A stretch of 64,000 nucleotides of DNA from Mustelus asterias (lineage: Eukaryota): the NCBI RefSeq assembly GCF_964213995.1, contig NC_135813.1:61256001-61320000 (forward strand). Direction: 5' to 3'. The position numbers and the translations under genes are program-made. Shown here piece after piece: positions 6,906 to 57,800 of this stretch. Position 1 is the stretch's first letter. The number at the start of each line of letters is the position of its first letter. The notes below the pieces were generated by a model. It saw only the letters and a list, made by a program, of their open reading frames with translations. It did no database searches and was not told the origin of the DNA.

Positions 6906-8599
6906 TAGTAGGAGATTTTGTTCCTCGTCAATTAGCTCATGGGCTGCTGTGAATGTTAATAGCCTTGCCCATTAACCTTACTAATCCTGCCTCAGAACAA
7001 TTCACCAACCTCCTTAAAAAATAAATAAACCGACCTATTTTGAATGAGGTTTTGGGTGAAGTCTATTCTGGATTCTCACTTCACTTTGTGCCACGAAGTG
7101 CACTGAGCACCCCTGAGTGGCAAATATGTAATTGTAACATAAAAGCCCATTTCTCCTGAACCAATTCCGTCACAGTAACCACCTTAATTAGATCATATGC
7201 TCACGGAATACAAGTCTATGCAGCCAGTTCTTGTAACACTTTAGGCATGGTATCATTATGGGGAATTTTCTCTGCCCCACCTAACTTCGACATGCATTTC
7301 CTGAGATGTGCTGCCCAGAAAAGAATAGATGATTCCATATGTGGTCAAACCAGATATTTGTATAGCTTTATAATGGTTACCAGGGGACAGTTGGCTAAAT
7401 GGTCAACACTGTGAGCTTGATTTCAGTTTTGACTGGACGCCTGCCCACCCACCCCATCATTGAGAGTGGGAGGCAGTGGCGACAGAACCAAGAATGACGC
7501 ATCAGGAAACAATGCTTTTGGGCAGCGAATGCGACAACTATCCATGCACATCACAGCCATTTTGAGATAAAGGCCAAATTTTTACCCGTTGCAATTCCTT
7601 TGTTTCCTGGATTTAACTGGCGGCGGAAGAGGCCATTTCCAGAACGCCAGCCCGGCAGATTTCGCTGCGCGGGCAGGTTTGGTGCGGGGCAATCTCTCCT
7701 GAATGAGACTCAAGGTCCATCTGATATGGAAATATGGAGGTTTATGTGGGCAAGTATCAAGCCGTCCATTTTAGTCTTGAGACTGACAGCTCAAATATTT
7801 ACTTAATTCTAGAATCTATGGATGAACAAAGGGATTTAGGTGGCTGTATACAAAGGCCACTCAAAATGATGGAACAGTTGCAAAAGGAAAAGTCAGACAG
7901 AAGGTAGCACTTTACCACAGACGCATTAGAATTAAAATGTGAGGGTACGATGCAGGGTTTTTTGGATAACGGGGTTGCCTGCCCCGACAACTAGATAGGT
8001 TAGCAGTCCCAACAGCAAGATTCATCCCCTGAAGAAGGGATCTCACAGTAGCTTTCGCAGTGAAAACCGTCGGGCTACCCACCTTGCCTTCGCCTTCCCC
8101 TGGTGCAGGTGAAATACGGGAGACGGAATGAATTTCTTCCGTGAGCATCAATTAACATCTTAAGGGCTTTAAACGGCCGAAGGGTGGGCGGGCTGCCTGA
8201 CACACTCCTTGTTCAGTATAATATGGGTGTCCGATCCGGAGTGCGCAGGAAGGCATTGTGGTCTTATGGTCAAATAGGGTGCAACGTGAGTCATTAAACA
8301 CGAGACAGAGGCTGTGATGCAGCTGAGTAAATAATCTCGGCTCGTAGCAACGAATGTGACAAAATATCGGTAGATGAGAGCTACCTTAAACCCCCACAAG
8401 ATTTTTAACCCGAACCCCACTGTGCCAGACCTGAGTGAAGACTTCCTGAGCTGCAAATAAGCTGGCATGACCGGTGGACAAACACAGAACGAATATTTCT
8501 TACATTTAAGTAAATATTCAAACCAGTAGGAAACTTGATTAAGTAGTCACCCTCAGAGTTCGAAGGTTGAGACACTCTATGCCAGTAACTTTCCTTGTT

Positions 8600-11500
8600 G
8601 AACAAAGAACAAAGAACAAAGAACAGTACAGCACAGGAAACAGGCCCTTCGGCCCTCCAAGCCTGTGCCGCTCCTTGGTCCAACTAGACCAATCGTTTGT
8701 ATCCCTCCATTCCCAGGCTGCTCATGTGACTATCCAGGTAAGTCTTAAACGATGTCAGCGTGCCAGCCTCCACCACCCTACTTGGCAGCGCATTCCAGGC
8801 CGCCACCACCCTCTGTGTAAAAAACGTCCCTCTGATGTCTGAGTTATACTTCGCCCCTCTCAGCTTGAGCCCGTGACCCCTCGTGATCGTCACCTCCGAC
8901 CTGGGACAAAGCTTCCCACTGTTCACCCTATCTATACCCTTCATAATCTTGTACACCTCTATTAGATCTCCCCTCATTCTCCGTCTTTCCAAGGAGAACA
9001 ACCCCAGTCTACCCAATCTCTCCTCATAGCTAAGACCCTCCATACCAGGCAACATCCTGGTAAACCTTCTCTGCACTCTCTCCAATGCCTCCACGTCCTT
9101 CTGGTAGTGCGGCGACCAGAACTGGACGCAGTACTCCAAATGTGGCCTAACCAGCGTTCTATACAGCTGCATCATCAGACTCCAGCTTTTATACTCTATA
9201 CCCCGTCCTATAAAGGCAAGCATACCATATGCCTTCTTCACCACCTTCTCCACCTGTGTTGCCACCTTCAAGGATTTGTGGACTTGCACACCTAGGTCCC
9301 TCTGTGTTTCTATACTCCTGATGACTCTGCCATTTATTGTATAACTCCTCCCTACATTATTTCTTCCAAAATGCATCACTTCGCATTTATCCGGATTAAA
9401 TTCCATCTGCCACCTCTCCGCCCAATTTTCCAGCCTATCTATATCCTGCTGTATTGCCCGACAATGCTCTTCGCTATCCGCAATTCCAGCCATCTTCGTG
9501 TCATCCGCAAACTTGCTGATTACACCAGTTACACCTTCTTCCAAATCATTTATATATATCACAAATAGCAGAGGTCCCAGTACAGAGCCCTGCGGAACAC
9601 CACTGGTCACAGACCTCCAGCCGGAAAAAGACCCTTCGACCACTACCCTCTGTCTCCTGTGGCCAAGCCAGTTCTCCACCCATCGAGCCACTTCTCCTTG
9701 TATCCCATGAGCCTTAACCTTCTTAACCAACCTGCCATGTGGGACTTTGTCAAATGCCTTACTGAAATCCATATAGACGACATCCACGGCCCTTCCTTCA
9801 TCAACCGTTTTTGTCACTTCCTCAAAAAACTCCACCAAATTTGTAAGGCACGACCTCCCTCTTACAAAACCATGTTGTCTGTCACTAATGAGATTGTTCT
9901 GTTCTAAATGCACATACATCCTGTCTCTAAGAATCCTCTCCAACAACTTCCCTACCACGGACGTCAAGCTCACCGGCCTATAATTTCCTGGGTTATCCCT
10001 GCTACCCTTCTTAAACAACGGGACCACATTCGCTATCCTCCAATCCTCAGGGACCTCACCCGTGTCCAAAGAAGCGACAAAGATTTCCGTCAGAGGCCCA
10101 GCAATTTCACCTCTCGTCTCCCTGAGCAGTCGAGGATAGATGCCATCAGGCCCTGGGGCTTTGTCAGTTTTAATGTTCCCTAAAAAACCTAACACTTCCT
10201 CTCTTGTAATGGAGATTTTCTCTAACGGGTCAACACCTCCCTCCGAGACACTCCCGGTTAACACGCCCCTCTCCTTCGTGAATACCGATGCAAAGTAATC
10301 ATTTAGGATCTCCCCTATTCCCTTGGGTTCTAAGCATAATTCCCCTCCTTTGTCCCTGAGAGGTCCTATTTTCTCCCTGACAACTCTTTTGTTCCTAACG
10401 TATGAATAGAATGCCTTAGGATTCTCCTTAATCCTGCCTGCCAAGAACATCTCGTGACCTCTTTTTGCCCTTCTAACTCCCCGTTTGAGATCTGTCCTAC
10501 TCTCTCTGTATTCCTCCAGAGCTCCATCTGTTTTTAGTTGCCTGGACGTAACGTACGCCTCCCTTTTCATTTTAATCAGATCCTCAATTTCCCTGGTTAT
10601 CCACGGCTCTCGAATCCTACCTTTCCTATCTTTCCTTTTTACAGGCACATGCCTATCCTGCAGCCTTATCAATAGTTCCTTAAAAGACTCCCACATGCCA
10701 GACGCGGACTTACCCTCGAACATCCTCTCCCAATCAACATCCACCAATTCCTGCCTAATCCGGCTATAGTCAGCCTTCCCCCAATTTAGCACCCTGTCCG
10801 TAGGACAGCACTCATCCTTGTCCATTACTATCCTAAAGTTAACAGAGTTGTGGTCACTATTTGCCACATGTTCCCCTACCGAAACTTTGACGACCTGACC
10901 GGGCTCATTTCCCAGAACTAGGTCCAGTATAGCCCCCTCTCTAGTCGGGCTATCTACATACTGTTCCAAAGAACCTTCCAGTACGCATTTTACAAATTTC
11001 TCCCCGTCCGGTCCCCCAGCTCTAAGCACTTTCCAGTCTGTGCCAGGGAAATTAAAGTCCCCCACTACAACAACCCTATGTTTTCTGCACCTATCCAGAA
11101 TCTCCTGACATATCATTTCCTCCACTTCCCGTGGGCTGTTGGGTGGTCTGTAGTACACCCCCAGCATAGTGACTGCACCCTTCCTGTTTCTGAGTTCCAC
11201 CCACAGCGACTCAGTACATGACCCCTCTAAGTTGTCTACCCTCTGCACCGCGGTAATATGCTCCTTAACTAATATCGCTACTCCCCCACCTTTTTTAGCC
11301 CCTCCTCTGTCTCGCCTAAAACACTTATACCCCGGAATATTCAGCTGCCAGTCCTGTCCTTCTTTTAACCAAGTTTCCGTCACCGCAACCACATCCAAAT
11401 TCCGCACAAGCATTAAGGCCCTAAGTTCGTCTGTTTTACCCGTTACACTCCTCGCATTGAAGCAGATGCACTCCAGACCTCCAGGCCCAGTCAGGTCCTC

Positions 11501-11628
11501 CTCCTCCAGAGTGCTCCTCTTCTTAGCTAGCCTTGCCTCAGTATTTACTGACCTCCTGTTTTGTTCCCCACCCCCCTGCCACACTAGTTTAAATCCTGCC
11601 GAAACACTCTAGCAAAACTCCCAGCCAG
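8600..11628 (-). mobile_element. Young 5'-truncated CR1 LINE (last ORF1 codons, full ORF2, 3' UTR, (GTTCTTT)n tail)
   Basis: Uninterrupted ORF2; microsatellite tail at about 8600-8625; ORF1 C-terminus LAGSFARVFRQDLN* ends at 11584. Confidence 0.95.
8684..11584 (-). CDS. CR1 ORF2: APE endonuclease plus reverse transcriptase
   Basis: 966-codon ORF with FNARS, TETW, GDFN, SDHN (APE) and NYRPVSLTS, DFSKAFD, GVPQGSVLGP, FADD (RT). Confidence 0.93.
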   Translation of the reverse strand: MWQGGGEQNRRSVNTEARLAKKRSTLEEEDLTGPGGLECICFNARSVTGKTDELRALMLVRNLDVVAVTETWLKEGQDWQLNIPGYKCFRRDRGGAKKGGGVAILVKEHITAVQRVDNLEGSCTESLWVELRNRKGAVTMLGVYYRPPNSPREVEEMICQEILDRCRKHRVVVVGDFNFPGTDWKVLRAGGPDGEKFVKCVLEGSLEQYVDSPTREGAILDLVLGNEPGQVVKVSVGEHVANSDHNSVNFRIVMDKDECCPTDRVLNWGKADYSRIRQELVDVDWERMFEGKSASGMWESFKELLIRLQDRHVPVKRKDRKGRIREPWITREIEDLIKMKREAYVTSRQLKTDGALEEYRESRTDLKRGVRRAKRGHEMFLAGRIKENPKAFYSYVRNKRVVREKIGPLRDKGGELCLEPKGIGEILNDYFASVFTKERGVLTGSVSEGGVDPLEKISITREEVLGFLGNIKTDKAPGPDGIYPRLLRETRGEIAGPLTEIFVASLDTGEVPEDWRIANVVPLFKKGSRDNPGNYRPVSLTSVVGKLLERILRDRMYVHLEQNNLISDRQHGFVRGRSCLTNLVEFFEEVTKTVDEGRAVDVVYMDFSKAFDKVPHGRLVKKVKAHGIQGEVARWVENWLGHRRQRVVVEGSFSGWRSVTSGVPQGSVLGPLLFVIYINDLEEGVTGVISKFADDTKMAGIADSEEHCRAIQQDIDRLENWAERWQMEFNPDKCEVMHFGRNNVGRSYTINGRVIRSIETQRDLGVQVHKSLKVATQVEKVVKKAYGMLAFIGRGIEYKSWSLMMQLYRTLVRPHLEYCVQFWSPHYQKDVEALERVQRRFTRMLPGMEGLSYEERLGRLGLFSLERRRMRGDLIEVYKIMKGIDRVNSGKLCPRSEVTITRGHGLKLRGAKYNSDIRGTFFTQRVVAAWNALPSRVVEAGTLTSFKTYLDSHMSSLGMEGYKRLV

Positions 11629-11951
11629 TGTTTTATTTTAAATTCCTCAATGATACTGTAGTCTGTAGTTCTTTGTCAGCGGCGGCTTCGCCTCTTTCCG
11701 AAGCCGCTCTTAAAAGCGTAACCCCTTTGTAGAACTTATTTTAGTTCCATAAAGATTGGAGCATATATTTATAACCTGAAATTCTACTTTTCCTCCCATT
11801 ATTAAGGCCACTTGGCAACCTAATAGACTTAGTTATTCCAGATAACTGCCCTCCCAATCCGCCACGCTGCTTCCTGTTTGCAGTTCGCACCACATGCAGT
11901 CACATGCAGGTCAGACCAGGTAAGGATGGTCACCTATCAGATCTGGCTCTT

Positions 11952-43083: not shown

Positions 43084-44360
43084 CATAGAAACATAGGAAA
43101 TAGGTAGAGGAGGAGGTCATTTGGCACTTCGAGCCTGCTCCGCCATTCATTGTGATCCTCGCTAACCGTTCAACTCAATAGCCTAGTCTTGCTTTCTCCC
43201 CATAACCGTTGATCCCATTTGCCCCAAGTGCTATATCCAGCCGCCTGTTGAATACATTCAATGTTTTGGCGTCAACTACTTCCTGTGGTAATGAATTCCA
43301 CAGCCTCGCCACACTTTGGGTGAAGAAATGTCTCCTTACCTCCGTCCCAAATGGTCTACCCCGAATCCTCAGACAGTGACCCTGGTTCTGGACTCCCCCA
43401 CCAACGGAAACATCCTCCCTGCATCTACCCTGTCTAGTCCTTTTAGAATTTTGTAAATCTCTATGAGCTCCCCCCTCGTTCGTCTGAACTCCAGCGAAAC
43501 CAATCATAACCTAATCAATCTCTCCTCATATATCAATCCCGCCATCCCCGGAATCAGCCAGGTAAACCTTCGCTGCACTCCCTCGAGAGCAAGAACACCC
43601 TTCCTCAGAAAAGGAGACCAGAACTGCACATAATATTCGAGGTGTGGCCTCACCAAGGCCCTGTATAATTGCAAGAACACATCCCTGCTCCTGTGCTCGA
43701 AACATCTCGCAATGAAGGCCAACATAGTATTTGCCTTCTTTACTGCCTGCTGCATCTGCATGCCTACCTTCAGCGACTGGTACACAAGGGCACACAGGAC
43801 CCGCTGCGCAACCCCCTCTCCCAACTTACTACCATTCAGGTATTACTTTGCCTTCTTGTTTTTGCTTCCAAAGTCAATAATCTTATCCAAATTATACTGC
43901 ATCTGTCGTTGATTTGCCCACTCACTCAACCTGTCCAGATCATTCTAAAGGATCTCTGCATCCTCGTCACATTTCACCCTTCCACCCAACTTGGTATCAT
44001 CTGCAAACTTTGAGATGTTACATTTTGTTCCCTCATCCAAATCATTTATGCATATTGTGAATAGCTGGGGTACCAGCACCGATCGCTGTGGCACCCCATT
44101 AGTTACTGCCTACCGATTTGAAAAAGCCCATTAATTCCTACACTTTCTTTCCTCTCTGCCAACCAGTTTTCTATCCATCTCAATACACTTCCCCCAGTCC
44201 CATGTGCTTTAATCTTGCACGATAGTCTCTTACGTGGGACTTTATCAAACACTTTCTGAAAGTCCAAATATACCACATCAACTGGCTCCCCCTTGTCAAC
44301 TCTATGAGTTACATCTTCAAAGAATTCCATCAGATTTGTCAAGAATGATTTCCCCTTCAT
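43084..44360 (-). mobile_element. Older CR1 LINE, 3' part (host of the nested insertion)
   Basis: RT C-terminal fragments; the sequence resumes at 47671 (..HGFM|KGKS..). Confidence 0.88.
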
Positions 44361-44442
44361 AGAACATAGAACATAGAACAGTACAGCACAGAACAGGCCC
44401 TTCGGCCCACGATGTTGTGCCGACCTTTATCTGAAACCAAGA

Positions 44443-47346
44443 TCAAGCTATCCCACTCCCTATCATCCTGGTGTGCTCCATGTGCCTATCCAATAACCGC
44501 TTAAATGTTTCTAAAGTGTCTGACTCCACTATCACTGCAGGCAGTCCATTCCACACCCCAACCACTCTCTGCGTAAAGAACCTACCTCTGATATCCTTCC
44601 TGTATCTCCCACCACGAACCCTATAGTTATGCCCCCTTGTAATAGCTCCATCCACCCGAGGAAATAGTCTTTGAACGTTCACTCTATCTATCCCCTTCAT
44701 CATTTTATACACCTCTATTAAGTCTCCCCTCAGCCTCCTCCGCTCCAGAGAGAACAGCCCTAGCTCCCTCAACCTTTCCTCATATGACCTACCCTCCAAA
44801 CCAGGCAGCATCCTGGTAAATCTCCTCTGCACTCTTTCCAGCGCTTCCACATCCTTCTTATAGTGAGGTGACCAGAACTGCACACAATATTCCAAATGTG
44901 GTCTCACCAAGGTCCTGTACAGTTGCAGCATAACCCCACGGCTCTTAAACTCCAACCCCCTGTTAATAAAAGCTAACACACTATAGGCCTTCTTCACAGC
45001 TCTATCCACTTGACTGGCAACCTTTAGAGATCTGTGGATATGGACCCCAAGATCTCTCTGTTCCTCCACAGTCTTCAGAACCCTACCTTTGACCCTGTAA
45101 TCCACATTTAAATTAGTCCTACCAAAATGAATCACCTCACATTTATCAGGGTTAAACTCCGTTTGCCATTTTTCAGCCCAGCTTTGCATCCTATCTATGT
45201 CTCTTTGCAGCCTACAACAGCCCTCCACCTCATCCACTACTCCACCAATCTTGGTGTCATCAGCAAATTTACTGATCCACCCTTCAGCCCCCTCCTCTAA
45301 GTCATTAATAAAAATCACAAAGAGCAGAGGACCAAGCACTGATCCCTGCGGCACACCGCTAGCAACCTGCCTCCAATCCGAAAATTTTCCATCGACCACC
45401 ACCCTCTGTCTTCAGTCAGACAGCCAGTTACCCATCCAATCGGCCAACTTTCCCTCTATCCCACACCTCCTCACTTTCATCATAAGCCGACCATGGGGGA
45501 CCTTATCAAACGCCTTACTAAAATCCATGTATATGACATCAACTGCCCTACCTTCATCAACACACTTAGTTACCTCCTCAAAAAATTCTATCAAATTTGT
45601 GAGGCACGACTTGCCCTTCACGAATCCGTGCTGACTATCTCGGATTAATCCGCATCTTTCTAAATGGTCGTAAATCCCATCCCTAAGGACCCTTTCCATC
45701 AATTTACCAACCACCGAAGTAAGACTAACCGGTCTATAATTACCAGGGTCATTTCTATTCCCTTTCTTAAACAGAGGAACAACATTCGCCATTCTCCAGT
45801 CCTCTGGCACCATCCCCGTGGACAGCGAGGACCCAAAGATCAACGCCAAAGGCTCTGCAATCTCATCCCTTGCCTCCCACAGAATCCTAGGATATATTTC
45901 ATCAGGCCCAGGGGACTTATCGACCTTCAGTTTATTCAAAACTGCCAAGACATCCTCCCTCCGAACATCTATTTCCTCCAGCCTATTAGCCTGTAACACC
46001 TTCTCTTCCTCAAAAACATGGCCCCTCTCCTTGGTGAACACTGAAGAAAAGTATTCATTCATCACCTCGCCTATCTCTACTGACTCCATACACAAGTTCC
46101 CACTACTGTCTTTGACCGGCCCTAACCTCACCCTGGTCATTCTTTTATTCCTCACATAAGAGTAAAAAGCCTTGGGGTTTTCCTTGATCCGACCCGCCAA
46201 GGACTTCTCATGTCCCCTCCTAGCTCTCCTAAGCCCCTTTTTCAGCTCATTCCTTGCTAACTTGTAACCCTCAATCGAGCCATCTGAACCTTGTTTCCTC
46301 ATCCCTACATAAGCTTCCCTCTTCCTTTTCACAAGACATTCCACCTCTTTTGTGAACCATGGTTCCCTCACTCGGCCATTTCCTCCCTGCCTGACAGGAA
46401 CATACCTATCAAGGACATCCAGTATTTGTTCCTTGAAAAAGCTCCACTTTTCATTAGTTCCTTTCTCTGACAGTTTCTGTTCCCAACTTATGCCCCCTAA
46501 TTCTTGCCTAATCGCATCATAATTACCCCTCCCCCAATTGTAAACCTTGCCCTGCCGTACGGCCCTATCCCTCTCCATTGCAATAACAAAAGACACCGAA
46601 TTGTGGTCACTATCTCCAAATTGCTCTCCCACAACCAAATCTAACACTTGGCCCGGTTCATTTCCCAGTACCAAATCCAATGTGGCCTCACCTCTAGTCG
46701 GCCCATCCACATATTGTGTCAGGAAACCCTCCCGCACACACTGCACAAAAACTGCCCCATCCAAACTATTTGACCTACAAAGGTTCCAATCAATATTTGG
46801 AAAGTTAACGTCCCCCATGACAACTACCCTGTGACCCCTACACATATCCATAATCTGCTTAGCAATTTCTTCCTCCACATCTCTATTACTATTTGGGGGC
46901 CTATAGTAAACTCCTAGCAACGTGACCGCTCCTTTCCTATTTCTAACTTCAGCCCATATTACCTCAGTGTGCAGATCCCCCACGAAGTGCCTTTCCGCAG
47001 CCGTTAAACTATCCTTGATTAACAATGCCACTCCTCCACCTCTTTTACCAGCTTCCCTACACTTAGTGAAACATCTATACCCCGGAACGTCCAACAACCA
47101 TTCCTGTCCTTGTTCTACCCACGTCTCCGTAATGGCCACAACATCGTAGTCCCAAGTACCAATCCACGCCCCAAGTTCATCTACCTTGTTCCGGATGCTC
47201 CTTGCATTGAAGTAGACACACTTCAACCCACCTTCCTGTCTACCAGTACCCACCCTTGACCCTGACACCTTCCCCAATACCTCACCACCCTCACTGACTT
47301 CTGGACTACAACTCCCTTTCCCACTCCCCTGACAAATTAGTTTAAA
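44443..47346 (-). pseudogene. CR1 ORF2 (APE plus RT) with a single premature stop
   Basis: ORFs 45412..47457 and 44443..45402 are in the same frame, separated by LSD*RQR. Confidence 0.88.
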
Positions 47347-47667
47347 CCCCCCTGAAGAGCCGTAACAAATTTCCCTCCGAGGATATTGGTGCCCCTCTGG
47401 TTCAGGTGCACCCCGTCCTGTTTGTACAGGTCCCACCTTCCCCAGAACGTGTTCCAATTATCCACGTATCTGAAACCCTCCCTCCTACACCATCCCTGCA
47501 ACCACATATTTAACTGCACTCTCTCCCTGTTCCTCAACTCGCTATCACGTGGTACCGGCAACGTACCAGAGATGACCACATGTTTCGTCTTGGCTCTCAG
47601 CTTCCAGCCCAGCTCCAGAAATTCCTGCTTTAAATCCCCGTCCCTTCTCTTACCTATGTCATTGGTA
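47337..47667 (-). CDS. CR1 ORF1 C-terminal fragment (SGNH esterase-like)
   Basis: TNDIG...VVISGTLP...LYKQDGVHLN..GT motifs typical of the CR1 ORF1 esterase domain. Confidence 0.75.
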
Positions 47668-47670
47668 GAG

Positions 47671-48222
47671 CATGAATCCATGCTGACTCTGTCTGATCCT
47701 GCCACTGCTTTCTCCATGCTCCGATATAAAATCCTTGATAACGGATTGGAGAACTTTCCCCACTGCTGATGTTAGGCTTACTGGCCTATATTTCCCTGTT
47801 TTCCCTGTACCTCCCTTTTTGAATAATAGAATGACATCAGCTACCCTCCAATCTGCCGGGACTGTTCCAGAGTCTATAGCATCCTGGAAGATGACCAGCA
47901 ATGAATTCGTTATTTCTCGAGCCACTTCCTTAACTACTCTGGGATGTAGATTATCAGGCCTTGGGGATCTATCCACCTTCAATCCCATCAATTTTCCCAG
48001 CACCATTTCTCTAATAATACTGATCTCCCTCAGTTGTTCCCTCTCACTACATCTTGCATTCTCTAACATATCTGATATCTGATTTGTGTCCTTTTTTGTG
48101 AAGACAGAACCAAAGCATGTATTCAAATGCTCAGCCATTTCCTTGTCCCTATTCTACATTGCCCCGTTTCTGTCTGTAGGGGACCTACATTTGTCTTCAG
48201 CAACCTCTTTCTCTTCACGTAG
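47671..48222 (-). mobile_element. Older CR1 LINE, 5' part
   Basis: ORF piece LHPRVVKE...KYRPVSLTS...QSQHGFM. Confidence 0.85.
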
Positions 48223-57449: not shown

Positions 57450-57800
57450 GTACCAACGCTGCTTCTGTGCTAACTCAGTCAGCGTCCGTCTCAACTTCAC
57501 TGGGAAGAACCGTCAAAATCACTTGCACCATGTCCGGCGGCAGCATCAGCAGCTACCACACCAGCTGGTACTGGCAGAAAGCTGACAGTTCCCCTGTTTT
57601 CGTTTGGAGGGACTATGATTCTTCTCGAGGTTCGGGGATTCCTGAGCGATTCACTGGATCGAGGGACACATCGAGAAACGTTATGCAGTTAACCATCTCC
57701 AATGTAAAGACCGAGGATGTCGCTGATTATTATTGTGGCGCCTGGGATTACACTGTTGGTGGATTCGTTTTCGGGAAAGGAACTAAACTCTATGTGGGCG
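57450..57800 (+). CDS. IGL: Ig lambda-type (type II) light chain gene 2, germline-joined V-J exon
   Basis: Acceptor at 57448-57449; open V with CGAWDYTVGGFVFGKGTKLYVG; donor at 57801. Confidence 0.95.

Follow-up and report, generated by a model that had tools for sequence, protein, structure and literature searches.

How does a CR1 retrotransposon translate its second open reading frame (ORF2) when that frame has no ATG before its first endonuclease motif and lies at −1 relative to the first (ORF1)? The question is raised by one copy in the window analysed here, meaning the whole stretch of 64,000 nucleotides from Mustelus asterias (contig NC_135813.1, positions 61,256,001 to 61,320,000). The initiation of LINE ORF2 is treated as an open question by Luke (2013, PMC3894237), and frameshifting is not among the options in the available part of that paper. 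The features of the focal copy, in window coordinates, are these.

8600..11628, minus strand: 5'-truncated copy of a CR1-clade LINE, about 3.03 kb, with an unbroken ORF2 frame (5' end from the fall in depth and loose contig ends; 3' tail; ORF)
11584..11628, minus strand: ORF1 remnant, the last 14 codons LAGSFARVFRQDLN plus the stop TAG, C-terminal tail of an SGNH/GDSL esterase (homology)
11590..11596, minus strand: G_GAT_TTA, overlapping the heptamer on its upstream side; a variant at 11594 gives G_GGT_TTA
11587..11593, minus strand: putative slippery heptamer T_TTA_AAC in ORF1 phase, directly 5' of the ORF1 stop (sequence; no variant of at least 5% in run X1)
11566..11580, minus strand: G-tract GGCAGGGGGGTGGGG after a 6-nt spacer, candidate stimulator, coding Q-G-G-G in the −1 frame (fixed offset, G4Hunter)
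11477..11593, minus strand: ATG-free −1-frame linker of 39 codons, from heptamer to endonuclease (sequence)
10850..11461, minus strand: APE-type endonuclease (PF03372, E = 1.4e-16)
11458-11456, minus strand: motif-I Asn codon (alignment of endonucleases)
11413-11411, minus strand: first in-frame ATG of ORF2, codon 66 (sequence)
9347..10006, minus strand: reverse transcriptase domain (PF00078, E = 1.5e-36)
8600..8623, minus strand: 3' tail, (TTCTTTG)3 with no poly(A) (sequence)

The frame of ORF2 is open for 974 codons (11608..8684, minus strand) and holds both the endonuclease and the reverse transcriptase domains. The Pfam families found in the ORF2 search were PF03372, PF14529 and PF00078 only, giving an APE endonuclease followed by a reverse transcriptase and no RNase H. 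The motif-I asparagine (FNARS) is invariant across 10/10 aligned endonucleases, and it may correspond to the essential Asn14 of L1. Matches to solved structures were weak and confined to the L1 endonuclease (E = 0.005, residues 60-184), with motif I outside the matched region. A short tandem-repeat 3' end without poly(A) is a feature of the CR1 clade, and both copies described below conform to it, with (TTCTTTG)3 at 8623-8600 and (TTCTATG)3 at 44378-44358. In a quick endonuclease tree built without named CR1 references both copies group with a Hypanus protein, and their nearest named proteins are from stingray and shark. The sequence AACA stands on both sides of the focal copy (11629-11632 and 8596-8599), a possible 4-bp target-site duplication that is too short for certainty.

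At the junction the minus strand reads CAG GAT TTA AAC TAG, with the stop TAG at 11586-11584. The initial annotation had held that the heptamer is phased X XXY YYZ in ORF1, that the −1 frame continues into ORF2, that the first ATG of ORF2 comes after FNARS, and that a G-rich tract begins about 6 nt downstream. Each of these holds. T_TTA_AAC occupies 11593-11587, the −1 frame reads F-K-L-V-W across it and straight into the 974-codon frame, the first ATG is codon 66 at 11413, and GGCAGGGGGGTGGGG lies at 11580-11566 after a spacer of 6 nt. The sequence TTTAAAC is present 20 times on the two strands of the window, so one heptamer alone is not beyond chance. Moreover the focal copy keeps just 14 codons of ORF1, and the case for frameshifting therefore rests on its relatives.

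The ORF1 frame of those 14 codons is likewise established by relatives only, namely from loose contig ends, the second copy and a set of esterase homologues. Aligned with residues 255-268 of protein P0061 the tail shows 64% identity with E = 1.6, which alone is not significant. Loose ends of X1 contigs at 11625 and 11628 extend the tail in frame into the esterase His motif (letters read by eye), and contig depth of only 32 beyond 11640 marks the 5' truncation at 11628. The window contains one other copy in which the ORF2 match extends to the junction.

44358..47666, minus strand: second CR1 copy, of another subfamily, with one in-frame stop in ORF2 near 45412; 67% nucleotide identity to the focal copy
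47337..47349, minus strand: its junction, G_GGT_TTA overlapping T_TTA_AAC (47346-47340), then TAA (sequence)

This second copy retains 109 codons of a GDSL/SGNH esterase ORF1 (PF13472); an esterase-type ORF1 upstream of ORF2 is identified by the profile here, and in the focal copy by the 14-codon tail and the loose ends. Its ORF1 ends GGT TTA AAC TAA, with the same heptamer in the same phase as in the focal copy, and 12/13 of its esterase ORF1 homologues have GLN at the C-terminus. There is no ATG for 165 codons after the junction, the first coming 166 codons on. The phase of the heptamer is identical in both window copies that retain the junction, and it is the same in relatives. The second copy is adjoined at its 5' end by a decayed ORF2 fragment of another CR1 (47671-48210, minus strand), and a further CR1 fragment (44360-43202) begins at its 3' tail; together the two fragments indicate nested insertions. 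Elsewhere in the window, near-identical plus-strand segments at 673-765 and 57635-57727 (GIPERFTGSRD...) resemble immunoglobulin variable-gene framework sequence.

Variation around the focal junction was compared in four sequencing runs, of which only X1 was informative (X23 and X24 gave 0 reads and X7 3 contigs). In X1, 2142 contigs matched at 80% or more; such contigs lose rare variants, and their depth is not copy number. No variant of at least 5% was found in X1 at 11506-11593. Positions 11594 and 11598 vary, the 11594 variant making up 18% of depth, and the G_GGT_TTA that it creates overlapping the heptamer is possibly a tandem shift site like that of the second copy. Depth is about 4e5 over 11566-11595 compared with 4e4 at 11536-11550. 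Loose ends cluster at 11560 and 11567, and other contigs share 11567-11610 and diverge just beyond the G-tract. The step in depth and the clusters of loose ends together imply that other subfamilies share the heptamer, the stop and the G-tract, and then diverge.

We sought relatives by alignment of the endonuclease without the junction sequence, so that the search was independent of the heptamer. This gave 89 CR1-like loci, 9 from genome contigs and the best 80 of 310 confirmed in metagenome contigs, for which the CR1 label rests on endonuclease similarity and ORF1 type. All 89 look like eukaryotic LINE DNA. Eukaryotic LINE sequence inside prokaryote genome records, annotated as bacterial protein (L001-L009, P0001 and P0058), is likely contamination. 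A scan of viral contigs and plasmids for relatives gave no match. The esterase profile matches 13 of the 89 loci, and in the quick tree 12 esterase loci (L002, L003, L010, L016, L022, L030, L035, L051, L055, L063, L066 and L089) do not belong to the vertebrate-like group. The non-esterase loci L018 and L004 nest among them in that tree, a placement that hints at swapping of ORF1.

For 12 esterase loci and the second copy the ORF1 stop was taken from the profile-matched segment without use of the heptamer. In all 13 of these heptamer-blind junctions a phased heptamer, either U_UUA_AAC or U_UUU_UUA, precedes the ORF1 stop by 0-24 nt. The same is true of the amniote-like locus L011 and the focal copy, neither of which is an independent test; L011 has a one-base break in ORF1 and its stop was placed via the heptamer, and homology served to place the focal copy. 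The survey of heptamer phase that the initial annotation had proposed as a check gives a heptamer in ORF1 phase at 15/15 junctions (U_UUA_AAC in 10 and U_UUU_UUA in 5), compared with 1/15 and 0/15 in the other two phases, though counts over related loci are not counts of independent events. Inside the ORFs of esterase elements the background of phased heptamers is 65 of 12,186 codons.

ORF2 is in −1 relative to ORF1 in 14/15 elements, the exception being L051, which has a later indel. In 14 elements the stretch from the heptamer to the first ATG, or to the endonuclease, has no stop in 602 codons of the −1 frame, as against 32/547 in the 0 frame and 130/602 in the +1 frame.

Could the heptamer be a by-product of an ORF1 protein that must end Leu-Asn, with codons inherited by chance through shared ancestry? 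The GLN endings of the homologues agree with such a constraint, and the elements are related. Yet 5/15 end Phe-Leu-x instead, and these again form a slippery heptamer. Endonuclease identity among the elements is 30-85% and identity at four-fold sites 9-55%, close to saturation. Given the amino acids and the codon use of each element, the exact heptamer codons at such saturated sites would arise by chance with a probability of about 0.03 in each element; these chances were not multiplied into a P value because the elements are related. The explanation is largely refuted and keeps a negligible probability.

The central proposal of the initial annotation, that an ORF1-ORF2 fusion is made by −1 frameshifting, gains strong support from this comparison through the phase, the switching between heptamer types, the fixed synonymous letters and the open −1 frame. 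We estimate a probability of about 80% that in esterase-type CR1 the heptamer is a programmed −1 ribosomal frameshift site yielding such a fusion.

A different reading is termination followed by reinitiation, in which the ribosome would restart in the −1 frame at the GTG overlapping the stop (TAGTG), at a nearby AUG or independently of AUG, with assistance from the G-tract or a hairpin. The focal copy does have a GTG overlapping the ORF1 stop, and there is a precedent in SART1, where a stop-start overlap acts with downstream structure (PMC3894237, in the part available). Initiation of L1 ORF2 independent of AUG, as described in a passage of PMC5009743, would also account for the missing ATG. 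An in-frame ATG before the motif-I Asn is absent from 7/15 esterase elements and present in 8/15 (including L055, where Met is three codons ahead of the Asn), in 3 of these at most 10 codons from the stop. Ordinary reinitiation is possible in these eight because of the early in-frame ATG. However, the overlapping TAGTG start that the initial annotation had named as the rival is not conserved; an ATG overlaps the ORF1 stop in 0/15 and a near-cognate in 3/15, a different codon each time. Reinitiation also leaves unexplained the fixed synonymous letters 5' of the stop and the switch between two heptamer types, and in L010, L016 and L022 it does not explain a frame open for 40-83 codons upstream of the ATG. 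On balance we regard reinitiation as improbable.

The second class comprises 61 loci from the 89-locus set (9 plus the best 80 of 310) whose upstream ORF is not of esterase type and spans at least 100 codons. Several have PHD fingers in ORF1. ORF2 is −1 relative to ORF1 in 49 of the 61, 0 in 6 and +1 in 6. A phased G_GAA_AAC occurs in 32/48 of the −1 overlaps where 0.47 would be expected from ORF1 interiors, with the qualification that the heptamer list was picked after the enrichment had been seen and that the search was confined to the open overlap. Another 6/48 have a phased G_GGA_AAC, and L034 has U_UUA_AAC at the matching site. Non-canonical G_GGG_GAA or G_GGG_GAC is found there in 6/48 (L004, L018, L020, L024, L048 and L084), and L027, a close relative of these six, has G_GGA_AAC. 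Most second-class loci form one clade in the quick endonuclease tree. The first letter of the heptamer site is G in 41/42 aligned loci although the preceding residue varies widely, which again argues against constraint by the protein.

In 42 loci of this class (including L013, L014, L017, L026, L039 and L056) the heptamer sits 60-141 nt upstream of the ORF1 stop, and in 22/48 the stop falls on the start of the endonuclease or within it, where restarting translation past the stop would be difficult. Motif I has no ATG before it in 37/48. No conserved fold was found downstream in this class, the consensus energy being 0.0 and z falling below −2 in only 2/33 loci. GTG GTA is present at +13 in 28/33 non-redundant loci. 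Most of the 42 loci have an unfolded GTGGTAGG at +13 to +20, with a spacing like that of protein-bound linear stimulators.

In L005:353, L006:1230, L012:708, L019:386, L032:983 and L058:793, two of them nearly identical, ORF1 and ORF2 are in frame across one TGA, which is followed by C in 5/6. Stop-codon readthrough at TGA in one sub-lineage is a weak lead from these sequences. Locus L040 (1867-1884) has a 19-nt −1 overlap with A_AAA_AAG just 5' of the ORF1 stop, and neighbouring members of its lineage use the in-frame TGA.

The motif might also have no part in decoding and be a binding signal in DNA or RNA, or the frame might change at the level of RNA, through splicing or slippage of the polymerase. 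There are six T in U_UUU_UUA, and in some copies the TAG is a potential splice acceptor. Yet there is no pyrimidine tract, and the stop at the junction alternates between TAG, TAA and TGA. T3A3 runs are too short for known polymerase slippage. The runs cited for slippage in the relevant passage of PMC5009743 are of 9. The strict codon phase of the heptamer points to the ribosome, and we give this group of explanations only the slightest probability.

We have also analyzed the sequence 3' of the heptamer. A hairpin of −10 kcal/mol or stronger with a spacer of 5-12 nt follows it in 9/12 of the non-vertebrate-like esterase loci, compared with 1/96 control sites. In the same 12 loci folding stability peaks exactly 3' of the heptamer, the mean z being −2.25 at offset 0 and −2.2 at offset 10, against values from −0.88 to +0.38 for the 27 other offsets. 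The stems are out of register in a MAFFT alignment of 11 hairpin regions. Downstream hairpins are compatible with reinitiation too. No strong hairpin was found 3' of the heptamer in the focal copy, the second copy or L011 (best −3.7, −3.7 and none), and a local hairpin in the focal copy is ruled out by z of 0.14 and 1.05. A search of the junction against Rfam gave no element, and one chance microRNA match with E = 0.95.

What the focal copy, the second copy, L011 and L051 have in common is AGGGG from +10. The G4Hunter score of the focal G-tract is 1.57, which exceeds every 30-nt window of its own ORF2, and ViennaRNA predicts a two-tier quadruplex in the focal copy and L011 and none in the second copy. 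The tract also encodes glycines in the −1 frame, though the codon after Gln or Lys is GGG in 4/4, where the share of GGG among Gly codons is 17-32%. A two-tier G-quadruplex or a linear protein-binding stimulator is a candidate role for the tract. A long-range partner for the G-tract or GTGGTAGG was rejected, the best duplexes being at unrelated positions and some beyond the element. Linear stimulators described in part of PMC5009743 lie 12-15 nt downstream and are linked to trans-acting factors; quadruplex stimulation was known there only from synthetic constructs, with natural examples anticipated and none known in 2016.

The vertebrate-type copies raise the possibility that both routes operate, such that a low level of −1 shifting gives the fusion, perhaps weakly where there is no hairpin, and free ORF2 protein made by reinitiation or later cleavage is the working enzyme. 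Both window copies and L011 are without a hairpin, and L011 has an ATG 4 codons beyond the heptamer. The two window copies have no ATG before motif I, yet their heptamer and G-tract are spaced as in L011. We consider this combination very unlikely. A 2A (StopGo) sequence was discounted on inspection by eye, DxExNPGP being absent; the focal linker has EEEDLTGPGG and the other 14 linkers are without the motif.

Under the preferred reading, frameshifting at the heptamer, most ribosomes would terminate at the TAG and release the ORF1 protein. A minority would slip back one base on U_UUA_AAC by tandem −1 slippage and continue in the −1 frame, so that ORF1 ...Q-D-L-N is followed by L-V-W-Q-G-G-G-E... 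The product would be ORF1, the 39-codon linker, endonuclease and reverse transcriptase in one chain, like retroviral Gag-Pol. Such a route would hold the amount of ORF2 protein low and couple that protein to ORF1 multimers. The phase, the open −1 frame, conservation at the nucleotide level, the type switching and the hairpins of relatives are present in the sequences compared. From these we infer the shifting itself, its rate, the fusion as the working form, and the G-tract or the adjacent stop as stimulator in vertebrate-type copies.

The proposed sites are familiar from other systems. In the portion of PMC5009743 (Atkins 2016) consulted, U_UUA_AAC and G_GGA_AAC are among the most shift-prone sites and G_GA is known as a variant of the first triplet, HIV uses U_UUU_UUA and coronaviruses use U_UUA_AAC; G_GAA_AAC itself and the term CR1 were not found in that portion. 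CR1 shares with coronavirus and retroviral frameshifting the heptamers, their phase, a short −1 overlap, and a structural gene followed by a polymerase, with a hairpin in CR1 relatives. Unlike them, CR1 is a non-LTR retrotransposon with no pseudoknot shown and an unfolded G-tract in vertebrate-type copies, and its frameshift is a predicted one. Passages of PMC11835228, PMC4255032 and PMC5408684 deal with retroviruses, LTR elements or mutations by decay. For retroelements that lack LTRs, frameshifting has already been published; in Penelope-like elements (PMC8557442, in part) ORF1 is separable by a frameshift with a pseudoknot, and Drosophila HeT-A has a gag frameshift (PMC5009743, same portion). 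The former have no APE endonuclease, HeT-A has no reverse transcriptase, and both belong to other clades.

Among LINEs, SART1 (UAAUG) and L1 (PMC3894237 and PMC3708506, in the passages available) resemble CR1 in having a bicistronic RNA and rare expression of ORF2, and in SART1 a structure past the ORF1 stop matters. For human L1 ORF2, AUG-independent initiation is proposed (PMC5009743, same portion). These elements make a separate ORF2 protein, whereas CR1 has no conserved start at the stop but a slippery site. The closest description is CR1 subgroup 7 with Type IV esterase ORF1 (Metcalfe & Casane 2014, PMC4120745, in part), which has the same SGNH/GDSL ORF1, APE and reverse transcriptase ORF2, tandem-repeat tail and 5' truncation. 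The part of that paper available contains no frameshift, overlap or fusion, nor do the available parts of PMC3708506 and PMC3905857 contain a frameshift. It gives the CR1 esterase ORF1 as exclusive to vertebrate groups, whereas 12 of our esterase loci are outside the vertebrate-like group of the quick tree; esterases are reported in cnidarians and sponges for other clades in a passage of PMC3905857.

Our literature search for CR1 with ribosomal frameshifting, which covered papers other than the original chicken, turtle and mosquito CR1-clade descriptions, found no report. It is a distinct, though less likely, possibility that CR1-clade descriptions of the 1990s already propose a frameshift. 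What we describe is a known mechanism, −1 frameshifting, in a clade for which that search found no description.

A broader proposal can be put forward tentatively. Gag-Pol-like recoding may be ancestral and clade-wide in CR1 LINEs, with U_UUA_AAC, U_UUU_UUA and G_GRA_AAC replacing one another as the slippery site beneath two ORF1 types that are not related. UGA-C readthrough would have been adopted by one sub-lineage, and in vertebrates the hairpin would have been replaced by the +10 G-tract, acting as a natural G-quadruplex or a protein-bound linear stimulator.

CR1 is a dominant repeat of birds, reptiles and cartilaginous fishes. Reinitiation is the usual answer for LINE ORF2; frameshifting in CR1, if true, would instead give a fusion like retroviral Gag-Pol. 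It would move the start given for ORF2 in repeat libraries and explain why many CR1 ORF2s are without a usable ATG, and synthetic CR1 constructs would have to retain an intact junction. The family would then hold many natural frameshift cassettes, with three candidate types of stimulator, the hairpin, the G-tract and the linear GTGGTAGG.
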